Of a DNA stretch of 37,200 nt, positions 4,076 to 36,500 are shown piece by piece (within the stretch, counting starts at the first letter, position 1; the number at the start of each line of letters is the position of its first letter). This DNA is from a virus (taxonomy: Duplodnaviria > Heunggongvirae > Uroviricota > Caudoviricetes), in the IMG/VR virus record IMGVR_UViG_2526164668_000026; one strand, 5' to 3'. A program made the position numbers and the translations under genes. The notes beneath the pieces are model-generated. The model had not been told where the DNA came from and did not search any database. It saw only the letters and a program-made list of their open reading frames with translations.

Positions 4076-4492
4076 ATGAACGCAAAAGAAAAAAATATTA
4101 TCAATACATTAAAAATAGTGTCAGCAGAGCAAGACAAGCTGTCCAGGGCAGCCCAGAAAGATAATCAACATATGGCAGCGCTTTACGCACTGACCATCGC
4201 AATAGCCACCTCTGAAGCAGCCAAAGTTATTGAGGAACAGAGCAAAGAAATCGACACTCTTAAAACACAGTCAACAGTTGCAGCCATGAATCCGTCCAGC
4301 ATTGGACGCTGCATTTATATTCTTGGTTCAGCAATGATGCTGCAATACACCATTATTGCCGAACTGCACGGCAAATACCTGATAACGCCTTACCACACAA
4401 AAGAGTCTGAGCTTCTGACAAATCTCCGCCTGATAGAACGCTCTCAAGCTGTATTCATTGATGACGCGCAACGTGCCGTATTTAACGCATAG
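4076..4492 (+). CDS. Hypothetical early protein
   Basis: 138-aa ORF with GGAG RBS upstream (..aacGGAGatataaaATG). Confidence 0.5.
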   Translation: MNAKEKNIINTLKIVSAEQDKLSRAAQKDNQHMAALYALTIAIATSEAAKVIEEQSKEIDTLKTQSTVAAMNPSSIGRCIYILGSAMMLQYTIIAELHGKYLITPYHTKESELLTNLRLIERSQAVFIDDAQRAVFNA

Positions 4493-4515: not shown

Positions 4516-4719
4516 ATGGCAATTAAGCATTTTTCCGTCGTTCGCTTTACCTCCAGAGGGCGCGAATACGAGGTCGACGAACGCCTGATTACCACTATCG
4601 ACAAACATCGTTCGGAAAAGGATGCGCACCACATCTACCTCACTGACGGCACTTATTTCTGCGCCACCAACGTGGCGCGGGTGAATCTTATCCGACAAGT
4701 ACAGGAGCCACGCAGATGA
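4516..4719 (+). CDS. Hypothetical early protein
   Basis: 67-aa ORF with RBS-like AAGGGGG upstream; coupled to the next ORF. Confidence 0.4.
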   Translation: MAIKHFSVVRFTSRGREYEVDERLITTIDKHRSEKDAHHIYLTDGTYFCATNVARVNLIRQVQEPRR

Positions 4720-4982
4720 CCATTCTGGACTACATCGCTACTCATCCGGGGTGTAGCGGCGGAGAGATCGCCGCAGCACTGAATACTCCAACCACAGCCA
4801 TTAATGCTGAGTTACGCCAACTTTGGCGCGGCGGCTTAGTCATCAGAACAAACCGCAGCACAGGTGGTCGCGCTCGCAAAACTGGAGGCCAGGCTTCTTA
4901 CCACGTAAACCCGATGCCGTTCGGGTGTAGCAATCCACTTACTCACATGTTTAACCAGCTACTGAAGGAAGCCAGAACATGA
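4716..4982 (+). CDS. Hypothetical small DNA-binding (winged-helix-like) protein
   Basis: 88-aa ORF; start overlaps the previous stop; N-terminal segment resembles a winged-helix fold. Confidence 0.45.
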   Translation: MTILDYIATHPGCSGGEIAAALNTPTTAINAELRQLWRGGLVIRTNRSTGGRARKTGGQASYHVNPMPFGCSNPLTHMFNQLLKEART

Positions 4983-5269
4983 GCACCATCAACCACCAGA
5001 AGCTACGCGAACTGGCATTTGCCCTGCAACGAATGGCAACGCCTCAAAAATTACTGGCATTTCGCGCAATGCTCTCGCCGTCTGCTGTGCTGGCACTGCT
5101 GGATCAGCTGGAGCACGCCAGAACCACGGCTCCTGCCATTCGCCTCACGCTCCATCATGAAATCGCTGATTTCTGCGCAACGCTGGGGGCACCTGGCGAA
5201 CCGGAAACGCCGGAAGCAATGCAGCAAGAGCTGCTGCAACGCATCGATAACGTTTTTGATTTTTTCTGA
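4979..5269 (+). CDS. Hypothetical early protein
   Basis: 96-aa ORF; start overlaps the previous stop (ATGA). Confidence 0.45.
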   Translation: MSTINHQKLRELAFALQRMATPQKLLAFRAMLSPSAVLALLDQLEHARTTAPAIRLTLHHEIADFCATLGAPGEPETPEAMQQELLQRIDNVFDFF

Positions 5270-5599
5270 ACCAGTAAGAAACCAGAACATGCACACACAA
5301 AAAAACCGCTTGCCATGCCTCAATCGGTCAGGTTACATTTCCGCTGCACCTCATAAAACGGGTGCCGGGATTCTCAACCCGATACAGAGCAAAGCGCATA
5401 ACCGCGCAAGCGGTTTTTTTGTGCGTACTGTATTGCCACGTCTTTTTCGCGTCAGAATTATGGCGGGGCGTACGGGGCCGACTTCGGTCGGGCCGGATTC
5501 TTTGCTCTCCGGTGTTGAGAACCCTGTACGTCTCGCCACCCCGAGATTCTCAACTCTGGATGGTGAGTTATTTCTATCACCGAGCAAAGAGGCCACACC

Positions 5600-5830
5600 A
5601 TGGCAGACCGCAAACAGCACCGCGCTATCGCGGAGCGTCGTCACATCCAGACTGAAATCAACCACAGACTTTCCCGCGCATCACGCGTCGCGCAAATCAT
5701 GCACATCAATATGCTGCATGAGCGCAGCCACGCACTATCAAACATTTATTCCGCCTCTGTTTTCAGCTATCTGGCGGATGATCTGCACGAGCTTCAACAG
5801 CTCATCCAGCAGCAAAACAAACTCCATTAA
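5600..5830 (+). CDS. Hypothetical early protein
   Basis: 76-aa ORF with RBS-like AGAGG upstream; follows a structured non-coding region. Confidence 0.4.
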   Translation: MADRKQHRAIAERRHIQTEINHRLSRASRVAQIMHINMLHERSHALSNIYSASVFSYLADDLHELQQLIQQQNKLH

Positions 5831-5902
5831 TTCCTGTTCCGGGCCTTTCCTGCACCTTGCGGCGGGAGGCCTTCGCACATCTGTAACAAGAGGATTGCCG
5901 CA

Positions 5903-6268
5903 ATGATTCTCGCCAACGACTTTCTTGAATACCTGCTCAACACAGAACGTGATCTTGCCGCTCGCGTGCGTGATCGTTATGACATGTACCTGAAATCCCT
6001 GCCTGTACCGCAGCTCGCTGACGGAAAGATTGTTATTGATGGTCGCTACATGATTGACAGCCACGAGGGAAATTACAGGCTTTACCGCATTGAAGGTGGC
6101 ACCCCGTCCGTTATTGGCATTTACCAGCGCCCATCCTCTGCAATCGTCGATGTGATTGCCGACAGCATCCGCATCACACATCGCCATGCCGACACAGAAG
6201 ACACCGTGCTGGAAATTCAGCGGCTGGCTACAGTCTGCCGCGACACCCTGAATGGCATGACGAAGTAA
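5903..6268 (+). CDS. Hypothetical early protein immediately upstream of the replication gene
   Basis: 121-aa ORF, same strand and close to gene A. Confidence 0.45.
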   Translation: MILANDFLEYLLNTERDLAARVRDRYDMYLKSLPVPQLADGKIVIDGRYMIDSHEGNYRLYRIEGGTPSVIGIYQRPSSAIVDVIADSIRITHRHADTEDTVLEIQRLATVCRDTLNGMTK

Positions 6269-6274
6269 ATCACT

Positions 6275-9037
6275 ATGACGGCAGAGTACATCAGGGACTG
6301 GCAACAACCGCGCCACGCAGTGGGGCGTGAAGGAACGGGGATCCCCGCTCCTGAATCCGCGCTTTCCTCCTGGCTGGATGCCTACCGGGTAGAGAACGAG
6401 CGCCGCCAGGAAATGGCTGATGCGGCGTTCTCCGCCACGCCGCTGGGCAACCTGATTAATAAAAGCCTGGACGCACAGGAAAAACAGGACAAAACCATCA
6501 CACTGGCAGGAGACGCCAGAAAACAGGCACGCGGCGCGGTGGATGAAGCCATGGCCTCGCTGCGCCTGCTGCCGTCCTATCTGCGCGATCCGCTTATTCG
6601 CCACCTCTCCTTCCTGCGCAAAAAACAGGAAGCCGATCGCCGGAAAGGCAAAAAGAGCTGGCAGGCGGAACGCTATGCACGCGGAACCCTGCGCAAAATA
6701 TTCGAACGTCTGGATAGCACTGACGGACGCTGGCTGACACCGGGTTATCGCTCCCTTGCCGGACGCGAACGCCTGGACGATTTGCTTTACCTGCCGCAGC
6801 TCAACAAACACCAGATACAGACGCTGGCCACCATGACGGCGGCGATGTTCAGCAGCACCTTCGAAAAACTCTGCGATGGCTTTGGCGCGACCGATGGCGA
6901 GCTGACCATGGATGTAACCCTGAAGGCGTATCAGATGCTGGCCCGCATGGCGTTACACCTGCACGCCATGCCTCCACATTATGACGCACTGACAACAGAC
7001 AAAGACCGGAGGAACGAACCGGACACGGAGCTGCTGCCGGGCGCAATCCTTCGCCTGACCTGTGCGGAATGGTGGAAACGCAAACTGTGGCTGTTACGTT
7101 GCGAGTGGAGAGAAGAACAACTCCGCGCCGCCTGTCTGGTTTCCAGAAAAACATCACCCTATCTGAGCCAGGACGCGTTAAGCGAGTTTCGCGCACAGCG
7201 CGAGAAAACACGCGATTTCCTGAAAAGTTTCATGCTGGAAAATGAAGACGGGTTCACGATTGATCTCGAGACAGTGTATTACGCGGGAGTAAGTAACCCG
7301 GTTCACCGTAAGGCAGAAATGATGGCCACCATGAAGGGGTTGGAACTTCTGGCCGAAGCCCGTGGCGACAAAGCGGTGTTTCTGACTGTCACCTGCCCGT
7401 CAAAATACCACGCCACAACGGAGAACGGTCATCCGAATCCCAAATGGAACGGGGCCACAATGCGCGACTCCAGCGATTACCTGGTTAACACGTTTTTTGC
7501 GGCGGTCCGCAAAAAACTGAACCGCGACGGCCTGCGCTGGTATGGCATCCGCACGGTGGAGCCTCATCATGACGGCACCGTGCACTGGCATATGATGGTC
7601 TTTGCACATCCGGAAGAAATCGACACCATTGTGTCCCATACCCGCGATATTGCCATTCAGGAAGACCGCCACGAGCTGGGCAATGATATTACTCCGCGCT
7701 TTAAGGTGGAGTATGTCGACGGCTCAAAAGGCACGCCAACCAGCTACATCGCCACCTACATCGGAAAGAACCTGGACAGCCGCGCCGTGGATGGCATCGA
7801 CCCGAAAACGGGCAAGCCACGCGTGGACCACGAAACCGGAAAATCAATGGCCGAGAGCGTGGAGCGCGCCATCGGCTGGGCGCGCCTTCACCGGGTCCGT
7901 CAGTTCCAGTTCTTTGGCATCCCCTCCCGTCAGGTGTGGCGTGAACTGCGCCGCCTTGCCAGCCAGATGGCACGCAATCCGGAAGGCCCGCAACGGCTGA
8001 AAGATGATGCAATGGATGCGGTACTCGCTGCCGCCGATGCCGGGTGTTTTGCCACCTACATTAAAAAACAGGGTGGCGTGCTTGTTCCACGCAAGGACTA
8101 CCTGATTCGCACCGCCTACGACCTCGCAGATGAGCTGAACGATTACGGCGAACAGAGCGTACAGATTTACGGAATCTGGTCACCACTCATCGGGGAATCC
8201 TCCCGTGTGTGCACGCATCCGGATAACTGGAAGCTAGTAAGACGTAAACCGGAAGCGGAAGACAGCGCCCGCGAAAATGGTTTTGACCTTCAGGGCGGCC
8301 CTGCCGCCCCTTGGACTCGTGGCAATAACTGTCCCCGTGTACAGGAAACAGACAACAACAGGACAGAACAGCCGGAAGAACGGCCAGCACTGTGGCCGCA
8401 GCTTCCTGACGGCGTTGATGTGGATGAATGGATGCGCTCACTGAAACGGCACGAACGCCGGGCGCTGATGCGTTCGCTGCGTGACAAACAGGCAAAAAAC
8501 AGCAGTGATGAAATGCAGAGCTGGACACAGAGCCGCAAACAGCAGCGGCCTTTGCCTGATAACCACGAATTACTCGCTAAAGAATGGCGGGAATCTGCCG
8601 AATCTCTCGGCCTGCATATCGGTGAACAGCAGATGCAGCACCTGTTACGGGGCGGCAGCTTGTACGTTGACGGCAGCATCATTGCACCACAGGGATTTGA
8701 AATTGTACGCAAACCGGATACCCGCCCGGACAGCCGAATCACGCAGCTCTGGCAGCGCCTGAGCCGTAATCACGGCGTAAGCAGCACGGAGATCCGCCAT
8801 AACCCGGTCGCCAGCTATCTGGAACAGCTGGGGGCATCAGACCCCAAAGCCGCCGCACGCCTGGCATCCACACTTCAGCAGGACCAGAACACCATGAAAA
8901 CCCCCGTTACTGTGCTTTCTGACATGCTGCGCGCCATTCACGACACAGAGCACACACAAAGAATCTGTGAAACAACCGAACGCGCCTGCCACAAAGCTGA
9001 CCTACTGCGAAGAGGAGTAAAGAGTGGGAACAAATAA
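6275..9037 (+). CDS. A: Replication initiation protein A (HUH rolling-circle endonuclease, P2 gpA-like)
   Basis: 920-aa ORF; HUH motif (..GTVHWHMMVFAHPEE..) followed by a tyrosine pair (..YIATYIGKN..); last large gene of the early operon. Confidence 0.85.
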   Translation: MTAEYIRDWQQPRHAVGREGTGIPAPESALSSWLDAYRVENERRQEMADAAFSATPLGNLINKSLDAQEKQDKTITLAGDARKQARGAVDEAMASLRLLPSYLRDPLIRHLSFLRKKQEADRRKGKKSWQAERYARGTLRKIFERLDSTDGRWLTPGYRSLAGRERLDDLLYLPQLNKHQIQTLATMTAAMFSSTFEKLCDGFGATDGELTMDVTLKAYQMLARMALHLHAMPPHYDALTTDKDRRNEPDTELLPGAILRLTCAEWWKRKLWLLRCEWREEQLRAACLVSRKTSPYLSQDALSEFRAQREKTRDFLKSFMLENEDGFTIDLETVYYAGVSNPVHRKAEMMATMKGLELLAEARGDKAVFLTVTCPSKYHATTENGHPNPKWNGATMRDSSDYLVNTFFAAVRKKLNRDGLRWYGIRTVEPHHDGTVHWHMMVFAHPEEIDTIVSHTRDIAIQEDRHELGNDITPRFKVEYVDGSKGTPTSYIATYIGKNLDSRAVDGIDPKTGKPRVDHETGKSMAESVERAIGWARLHRVRQFQFFGIPSRQVWRELRRLASQMARNPEGPQRLKDDAMDAVLAAADAGCFATYIKKQGGVLVPRKDYLIRTAYDLADELNDYGEQSVQIYGIWSPLIGESSRVCTHPDNWKLVRRKPEAEDSARENGFDLQGGPAAPWTRGNNCPRVQETDNNRTEQPEERPALWPQLPDGVDVDEWMRSLKRHERRALMRSLRDKQAKNSSDEMQSWTQSRKQQRPLPDNHELLAKEWRESAESLGLHIGEQQMQHLLRGGSLYVDGSIIAPQGFEIVRKPDTRPDSRITQLWQRLSRNHGVSSTEIRHNPVASYLEQLGASDPKAAARLASTLQQDQNTMKTPVTVLSDMLRAIHDTEHTQRICETTERACHKADLLRRGVKSGNK

Positions 9038-36197: not shown

Positions 36198-36284
36198 TGG
36201 TACCCGGAGCGGGACTTGAACCCGCACAGCGCGAACGCCGAGGGATTTTAAATCCCTTGTGTCTACCGATTCCACCATCCGGGC
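36198..36284 (-). tRNA. leuZ: tRNA-Leu (anticodon UAA)
   Basis: Reverse complement gives GCCCGGATGGTGGAATCGGTAGACACAAGGGATTTAAAATCCC...CCGGGTACCA, 87 nt with CCA end. Confidence 0.9.
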
Positions 36285-36296
36285 TCGGGAAGAAAG

Positions 36297-36370
36297 TGGA
36301 GGCGCGTTCCGGAGTCGAACCGGACTAGACGGATTTGCAATCCGCTACATAACCGCTTTGTTAACGCGCC
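36297..36370 (-). tRNA. cysT: tRNA-Cys (anticodon GCA)
   Basis: Reverse complement gives GGCGCGTTAACAAAGCGGTTATGTAGCGGATTGCAAATCCGTC...CGCGCCTCCA, 74 nt. Confidence 0.9.
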
Positions 36371-36424
36371 AAATTCTTCAGGCCTTTCAGCCAGACATCC
36401 GCTTGACGCCGATGTCTTTTAAAC

Positions 36425-36500
<76 letters not shown>

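Follow-up and report, generated by a model that had tools for sequence, protein, structure and literature searches.

An IsrK-like and a C4-like RNA form a probable antisense-RNA immunity cassette ahead of the replication gene of a P88-like prophage

Which function resides in an interval of 330 bp that interrupts the early operon of a prophage without a convincing open reading frame (ORF)? The interval spans positions 5270-5600 of a viral DNA of 37,200 nt (Caudoviricetes; IMG/VR record IMGVR_UViG_2526164668_000026), which is called the window in the following. The window is a P88-like P2-family prophage of Escherichia coli (Xuanwuvirus, Peduoviridae). The original prediction, made on the letters alone, had described the gap as non-coding and rich in features, and all the features it listed are present in the sequence. 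It had offered three functions: a structured small RNA, an internal terminator or antiterminator before the replication genes, or binding sites for a DNA-binding protein encoded upstream. The first was right, and the interval holds in fact two RNAs, one IsrK-like and one C4-like. It is very probably an antisense-RNA 'second immunity' cassette of the P1 immI / P4 immunity type, accessory in the early operon of the prophage, and as such an ordinary member of a known antisense-RNA system.

Two RNA families in the interval

Two Rfam models matched side by side on the + strand, both above their curated thresholds. The isrK model (RF01394) was matched in full length at 5346-5420 with 63.1 bits, the gathering score being 50; the model of the C4 antisense RNA (RF01695) gave 78.5 bits against a gathering score of 45 and covered model positions 1-87 of 87. 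The elements of the two RNAs and their recognition sites, named after the annotation of P1 (a1, b1, c4, a2, b2), are:

5346-5420, + strand, IsrK / P4-seqA-like RNA (Rfam RF01394, fold, terminator scan)
5346-5365, + strand, IsrK hairpin 1
5366-5381, + strand, IsrK hairpin 2 with site a1 in the loop
5369-5378, + strand, a1 (GAUUCUCAAC) in the loop of IsrK hairpin 2
5386-5394, + strand, b1 (AGAGCAAAG), single-stranded in IsrK
5400-5420, + strand, intrinsic terminator of IsrK, AACCGC-GCAA-GCGGUU-U5 (terminator scan)
5456-5543, + strand, C4 / P4-CI-like antisense RNA (Rfam RF01695, fold)
5492-5513, + strand, C4 hairpin 2 with b' in the loop
5500-5508, + strand, b' (CUUUGCUCU), loop of C4 hairpin 2
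5514-5521, + strand, a' (GUUGAGAA), single-stranded junction of C4
5545-5554, + strand, a2 (GAUUCUCAAC), mRNA target 5 nt past the predicted C4 3' end
5582-5590, + strand, b2 (GAGCAAAGA), mRNA target overlapping the Shine-Dalgarno sequence AAGAGG (5587-5592)

Folded alone, the segment 5346-5420 formed the two hairpins and the terminator (-24.2 kcal/mol, z -3.1). The C4-like RNA has a closing stem of 16-17 bp around two hairpins. The first of these is the hairpin with a UUCG loop, CCGAC-UUCG-GUCGG, of the original prediction; it exists as described, but at 5478-5491, one nucleotide to the right of the 5477-5490 given there. For the predicted mature form (about 5462-5540, the ends being transferred from the annotation of P1) the minimum free energy (MFE) fold was identical to the family consensus, with -47.1 kcal/mol and a z-score of -5.3. 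RNase P cuts the 5' end of the precursor in the C4 family and leaves a stable RNA of about 77 nt. A tRNA-like stem followed by ACC, together with the homology to the annotated ends in P1, suggests that the RNA of the window is likewise cut from a longer precursor.

The traits of the isrK / P4 seqA family include a promoter of its own and the nature of an Hfq-binding small RNA. A promoter-like site lies at the homologous position of the window:

5310-5339, + strand, promoter-like site (-35 TTGCCA at 5310-5315, 18-nt spacer, -10 TACATT at 5334-5339)

The site ends 6 nt before the 5' end of the IsrK-like RNA, and transcription is predicted to start at about G5346. Similar -35 and -10 hexamers were read in the sequences of P4, N15 and Stx phages at the same distance from the IsrK 5' end. 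In P1, similar hexamers lie upstream of a1/b1, where promoter P1c4 is annotated. A second promoter-like match, TTGCCA-17-AATTAT, was seen at 5433-5461 just before C4; as a promoter of C4 itself it was discarded, its -35 hexamer reading TCGCCA in many relatives and its start falling inside the C4 stem.

Recognition sites and their covariation

The repeated motif GATTCTCAAC had been noticed at 5369-5378 and 5545-5554, and both direct copies are exact. Its inverted copy exists as well, with one mismatch, but occupies 5514-5523, 3 nt off the 5511-5520 first reported. A second triplet had been overlooked: AGAGCAAAG at 5386-5394, its complement at 5500-5508, and GAGCAAAGA at 5582-5590. The repeated motif is thus an antisense/target set, accompanied by a second set over the ribosome-binding site of the next gene. 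Site a, GAUUCUCAAC, is the partner of the C4 junction a' (GUUGAGAA), and site b, (A)GAGCAAAG(A), is the partner of the hairpin-2 loop b' (CUUUGCUCU). The Shine-Dalgarno sequence overlapped by b2 lies 7 nt ahead of the ATG at 5600, which opens an ORF for a protein resembling P4 epsilon. The order a1, b1, C4, a2, b2 is the one annotated in P1, with the same spacing. When the unprocessed transcript 5346-5620 was folded, a helix between the C4 loop and b2 buried the Shine-Dalgarno sequence.

The number of motif copies alone is without significance across the whole window: GATTCTCAAC had five matches at one mismatch or less, a count reached by 11 of 100 shuffles. The repeats are meaningful because of their clustering and covariation. 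The latter had been proposed originally as a check across related prophages, and the recognition sites do co-vary as RNA partners. Eighty IMG/VR loci were gathered via the downstream protein, and their 40 distinct sequences were aligned. Between C4 and a2/b2, 95% of the cells were paired in these 40 close relatives, and 153 cells had changed on both sides, compared with 46 +/- 5 in shuffles (none of 500 reached the observed number); the covariation score was 0.62, slid partners attaining at most 0.17. The pairing of C4 with a1/b1 gave a similar picture, with 92% of cells paired, 164 changed on both sides (0/500 shuffles) and a score of 0.575. The internal stems of C4 were 99.8% paired, including four compensatory pairs.

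The addition of distant loci extended the set to 166 loci with 62 distinct cassettes. Nine types of site a and 17 types of site b occurred among these in 27 combinations, and all copies matched in nearly every cassette. The joint changes of the sites, 27 combinations in 62 distinct relatives, show that the RNA-RNA pairing has been selected; the covariation is direct evidence of a pairing under selection and of a diversifying specificity. Identity to the closest relatives is about 95% in the flanking genes and drops to about 85% in the RNA block. The proposals below build on these observations: both RNA families with their folds, the layout of the sites and the co-variation of all six.

Three further observations concern the sites. 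The junction and the loop site re-assort independently of each other (9 and 17 types) in otherwise near-identical backbones. An additional exact copy of AGAGCAAAG is present at 4239-4247 inside the ORF 4076..4492; considered as a trans target of C4, it showed no co-variation with the C4 loop type in relatives and is therefore a chance match. One relative (L112, IMG/VR UViG_2825488710_000003) carries a tandem of two full isrK + C4 modules at a distance of about 680 bp; their a/b specificities differ, and a single epsilon-like gene lies behind them; the upstream repeat arms described below stand at its positions 221 and 900.

Downstream genes and prophage context

The transcription unit continues into three genes:

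5600-5830, + strand, epsilon-like ORF of 76 aa (Pfam PF25738)
5903-6268, + strand, orf121, downstream in the same transcription unit
6275-9037, + strand, replication endonuclease gpA, downstream in the same transcription unit

The 76-aa ORF matched Pfam PF25738 with 33.8 bits (cut-off 27), was 34% identical to P4 epsilon over 50 aa (E 4e-10) and bears the RefSeq name 'derepression protein'. By sequence it belongs to the family of P4 epsilon, the 'derepression' (anti-repressor) protein of P4. Binding and inactivation of a P2-type C repressor is a trait of this family, and the 76-aa protein may act likewise. A scan of genome contigs with the epsilon-like protein yielded only 2 loci. In the epsilon-like gene, codon positions 1 and 2 vary nearly as much as position 3 (27/23/39 variable columns), which hints at relaxed or diversifying selection. 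The genes orf121 and gpA are possible indirect targets of the RNAs, through polarity or termination.

The gene order of the prophage starts with an integrase (1-1002) and a helix-turn-helix (HTH) repressor of 134 aa (2051-2455), followed by a rightward operon. The last part of this operon comprises a MarR-type winged-helix gene (4716-4982), an Ead-like ORF, the RNA block, the 76-aa ORF, orf121 and gpA. Xuanwuvirus 520873 is devoid of both RNAs and of the epsilon-like gene, its winged-helix gene leading directly to the orf121 homologue; thus the RNA/epsilon block is an accessory cassette. All more distant relatives have the epsilon-like gene behind the RNA block and ahead of gpA, while the upstream genes vary. 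A stretch of 1.6 kb was matched in 1298 of 5426 complete E. coli genomes, about a quarter, with 351 records at 99% identity or more. E. coli O157:H7 strains such as PV15-279 and TR01 have a version of it that is 99.4% identical.

Other regions of the window drew attention as well. Just past gpA (L001 9476-10754) lie ParM-like segregation and partition/stability genes, an unusual cargo behind the replication gene of an integrated phage. At the end opposite to the integrase gene, a cluster of tRNA-Leu(taa), tRNA-Cys and tRNA-Gly on the - strand (36198-36500) is probably a chromosomal flank or attachment region.

Proposed mechanism

For promoter use, processing, the block of translation and any effect on gene A, we infer the following course from homologous systems. 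Transcription would begin at about 5346 from the promoter at 5310-5339. Most transcripts would end at the intrinsic terminator 5400-5420 and yield a 75-nt IsrK/seqA-like RNA that exposes a1 and b1. Read-through RNAs would contain the C4/CI-like RNA, from which the mature form of about 5462-5540 may be excised, as RNase P does in P1. The junction a' and the loop b' of C4 would then pair with a2 (5545-5554) and b2 (5582-5590) on the mRNA. Because b2 covers the Shine-Dalgarno sequence, the epsilon-like anti-repressor (5600-5830) would not be translated. To judge from the analogous systems of P1, P4 and N15, fewer transcripts would continue into orf121 and the replication gene A. The sites a1 and b1 of IsrK may serve as target mimics, competing for the same C4 segments and thereby setting the switch point. 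The second function of the original prediction, a terminator or antiterminator before the replication genes, has thus a firm part, the 3' arm of the inverted repeat being the intrinsic terminator of IsrK, while its effect on gene A is one that we infer.

Several points weigh against this account. Promoter, terminator efficiency, processing and translation block are deduced from homology and sequence. Neither icd nor ant lies downstream, so the operon is not that of P1. The short IsrK RNA of Gifsy-1 is an activator and not a repressor (PMC4825925); the net regulatory sign in vivo would therefore be set by RNA ratios and cannot be read from the sequence. Finally, the epsilon-like protein is about 90% identical in P88, whereas the P88 repressor, compared by size only, is a 93-aa 'C protein' and that of the window a 134-aa HTH protein; this difference in size makes the target of the epsilon-like protein uncertain.

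Alternative explanations

Two alternatives are compatible with the antisense cassette and shift its emphasis. In the first, taken from P4, the pairing of the C4/CI-like RNA would stop transcripts of the cassette promoter before orf121 and gene A, and the chief role of the cassette would be to lock replication in the lysogen. The isrK and C4 models match P4 seqA and CI, and the succession of promoter, seqA-like RNA, CI-like RNA, epsilon homologue, small ORF and replication gene is that of the P4 left operon. In P4, CI and seqA serve to terminate transcription early (PMC10111431; PMC4825925). A scan of 5150-5950 revealed no + strand terminator between the epsilon-like gene and orf121 (5600-5950). 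On the other hand, the sole intrinsic terminator precedes C4 and does not follow the targets. The cassette-free Xuanwuvirus keeps the orf121-gpA pair directly behind the winged-helix gene, thus gene A does not need the cassette. We regard a replication lock as a serious possibility, though one short of even chances.

The second alternative follows Gifsy-1: the long transcript would be silent by its cis fold, and abundant IsrK-like RNA would open the ribosome-binding site in trans, acting as the induction trigger for the anti-repressor. Experiments on the homologous isrK-orf45-anrP locus have established this mechanism there (PMC4825925). The burial of the Shine-Dalgarno sequence in the fold of 5346-5620 is in agreement with it, and a1/b1 of IsrK can compete for C4 because they have the same sequences as a2/b2. 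Gifsy-1, however, needs the translation of an ORF that begins about 107 nt past the IsrK 5' end and is coupled to the anti-repressor (PMC4825925). By our mapping, the matching position in the window is the ATG at 5460 in the C4 leader; it is out of frame with the epsilon-like gene, and its frame is broken in some relatives. A trigger of this kind appears somewhat unlikely for the window. In lambdoid phages and N15 (L006-L010), the ATG of the conserved C4 leader AAUUAUGG shares its frame with the antirepressor/icd-like ORF that lies downstream. In the window this ATG opens an alternative frame of 148 codons (to 5906), which overlaps the epsilon-like gene, ends as ATGA with the start of orf121 and is interrupted in several relatives. 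We discarded the ATG as a start for a coupled ORF of the orf45 kind; the arrangement is probably a coincidence.

The long inverted repeat raises a further alternative. Its arms are:

5293-5313, + strand, 5' arm, overlapping the -35 hexamer and upstream of the cassette start
5406-5426, + strand, 3' arm, comprising terminator loop, 3' strand, U-tract and 6 nt beyond

The perfect 15-nt repeat had been located exactly, with AAAAAAACCGCTTGC at 5299-5313 and its complement at 5406-5420; two such matches were found where shuffles let 0.01 be expected. If one mismatch is allowed, the repeat reaches 21 nt (5293-5313 / 5406-5426). In the IsrK terminator, the 3' half, the loop and the U-tract find their complement in the 5' arm. 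As this arm lies upstream of the cassette start, only RNAs from the early promoter would contain it. The repeat could hence act as an anti-terminator that senses the origin of a transcript: early-promoter RNAs would pair the arm with the terminator and be read on to gene A, while transcripts of the cassette promoter, starting inside the loop and devoid of the arm, would terminate. The calculated equilibria are favourable. The terminator hairpin had a probability of 0.97 in an RNA from 5346; in an RNA from 5285 it fell to 0.001 for the allele of the window and to 0.2 for the commoner GCCA-loop allele, even before the U-tract has emerged. With the arm present, the MFE structure exchanged the terminator for a helix of about 20 bp. 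Whatever genes precede it, every gpA-linked cassette has the 5' arm at its left edge. The lambdoid, N15 and P4 copies are devoid of it, with matches of 9 nt at most, perhaps because they use antitermination or head an operon of their own. P2-like phages are not known to possess antitermination of the N or Q type. Two outer pairs of the helix changed on both sides between the E. coli and the Salmonella subgroups.

Yet the covariation of the arms is weak: there was none within the 40 close relatives and in essence a single event in the wider set, where one slid control scored equally high. The seemingly perfect central pair 5311-5408 holds in only 5 of the 40 sequences. During transcription, the kinetics usually favour a local hairpin with a 4-nt loop over a helix that closes a loop of 92 nt. 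The same helix would also suit cleavage by RNase III or the termination of antisense transcripts. We therefore consider the anti-terminator unlikely. Still less should be staked on a wider conjecture, according to which the P2-like cassette gained a sensor of transcript origin through the 5' arm, so that lytic RNAs reach gene A and RNAs of its own promoter feed immunity, with at least 27 specificities forming a combinatorial immunity code among P2-like phages and perhaps P4-like satellites. An invertible promoter switch between the arms was also considered: no flipped 92-nt segment was noticed among the 166 gpA-linked loci (62 distinct modules), in pattern searches that covered the forward orientation only, and the inverton was set aside on this weak negative evidence.

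The remaining two alternatives hardly survive. The third function of the original prediction would make the motifs operators of an upstream DNA-binding protein, such as the MarR-type winged-helix protein (4716-4982), and the repeats do lie near the gene of such a protein. The proposal found no support, and a DNA operator was rejected as highly improbable: the copies, including the inverted one inside a structured RNA, co-vary as Watson-Crick or GU partners in 27 combinations; the RNA block has diverged further than the flanking genes of the closest relatives; and P1, P4 and N15 share the logic of the motifs but lack this winged-helix protein.

Least of all is the interval protein-coding, be it through ORF 5019..5906, 5362..5655 (+) or 5351..5665 (-), as some GenBank records have it. 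The record of phage 705R2 places a + strand coding sequence (CDS) of 205 aa over the region and that of P88 a - strand CDS of 62 aa, two annotations that are mutually inconsistent, and the RefSeq record examined has no CDS in the gap. Variable columns were distributed evenly over the codon phases (32/37/35, compared with 27/23/39 in the neighbouring epsilon-like gene), and relatives in the alignment of 40 carry frame-breaking indels of 1-2 nt; for both reasons the interval is not coding. The frame from ATG 5460, the 3' part of ORF 5019..5906, is broken in L034, L080 and L013, and L091 has the same 1-nt deletion as L080. The conservation of the interval is explained by the two RNA families. The judgement that it holds no convincing ORF, and that ORF 5019..5906 is spurious, was thereby borne out, and the chance of a coding interval is close to negligible.

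Comparison with known systems

IsrK/C4 have been equated with P4 seqA/CI and with the systems of P1, P7 and N15 (PMC3632133, PMC10111431). The IsrK-C4 system and its equivalence to P4 seqA-CI, P1/P7 c4 and N15 cA are thus already known, and at least one GenBank phage record annotates both RNAs. Our literature search found no paper on the IsrK-C4 cassette in P88-like phages. Four details are particular to the cassette of the window: in a helper-type phage it is paired with a homologue of P4 epsilon, it lies shortly before gene A, its specificity alleles are many and re-assort, and it has the additional 5' arm. The understanding of how C4/IsrK systems work is unchanged by our findings. They turn an unannotated gap into a defined module, with two RNAs that probably decide the expression of an anti-repressor, and perhaps of the replication gene, in a P2-like prophage. 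The co-varying specificity alleles are natural compensatory mutants for studies of RNA-RNA recognition.

The tandem of isrK and C4 matches was found in P88, vB_EcoM-705R2, Citrobacter phage Shae_phiSM, several Stx and other lambdoid phages, N15 and P4; in P1, c4-a1b1 and C4 were matched instead. A full-length match of another Rfam family, sRNA-Xcc1 (RF02221, 79.6 bits), was seen in phage TL-2011c (L011 2523-2606), about 850 nt past the C4 of this phage and between a regulator gene and an anti-repressor gene.

The anti-immunity locus of N15 (cA RNA, icd-like gene, antA) has the isrK + C4 pair before an anti-repressor operon, and in its junction site, GUUGAGAA/UUCUCAAC, it even shares the type seen in the window. 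It differs in the downstream genes, the linear plasmid-prophage genome and the lack of the 5' arm. The isrK-orf45(STnc1160)-anrP locus of Gifsy-1 contains the founding member of RF01394 (PMC4825925). As predicted for the cassette of the window, it combines a short terminated RNA and a read-through mRNA from one promoter with a downstream anti-repressor and a cis-silenced long form. In contrast, it belongs to a lambdoid prophage, with AnrP as anti-repressor and AntQ as output, and requires the translation of orf45, whose mapped start lies in the C4 leader in a frame that is not conserved here.

In P1, C4 represses the synthesis of Ant (PMC8546580, PMC8198154). As far as Citron & Schuster (1990/1992) are cited in PMC8546580 and PMC8198154, the immI region of P1/P7 consists of the c4 antisense RNA and the sites a1, b1, a2 and b2, which control icd-ant. 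The cassette of the window resembles it in the RNA family (RF01695), the order a1-b1-C4-a2-b2, the a' junction and the b' loop of hairpin 2. In both, b2 covers the site at which ribosomes would bind for the first ORF downstream (icd in P1), the output, a predicted one in the window, is the control of an anti-repressor, and alleles of differing specificity exist, as between P1 and P7. The downstream gene of the window, however, is a P4-epsilon homologue (PF25738) and not icd-ant1/2; no alignment was obtained between the epsilon-like ORF and P1 Icd. Since this ORF is of the epsilon family and unalignable to Icd, P1 shares the RNA module but not the operon. The upstream element is isrK (RF01394) here and c4-a1b1 (RF03163) in P1, and the cassette lies inside a P2-type early operon before gene A, whereas P1 has a separate operon with a C1 operator.

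The P4 immunity region is ordered PLE promoter, seqA, CI RNA (seqB), seqC, epsilon, orf151 and alpha. Its two RNAs are separated by a spacer of 107 nt, compared with 35 nt in the window; CI lies within the kil/eta reading frames and acts by transcription termination; the replication gene is the alpha primase instead of gpA, orf121 is unlike orf151, and P4 is a satellite without the 5' arm, the window a complete helper-type phage. Nevertheless, the isrK model falls on seqA and the C4 model on CI, the promoter has the same position, and an epsilon homologue followed by a replication gene lies downstream in both. The immunity/epsilon block of the satellite P4 is thereby tied to a homologous block in helper-type phages, which bears on the exchange of control modules between satellites and their helpers.

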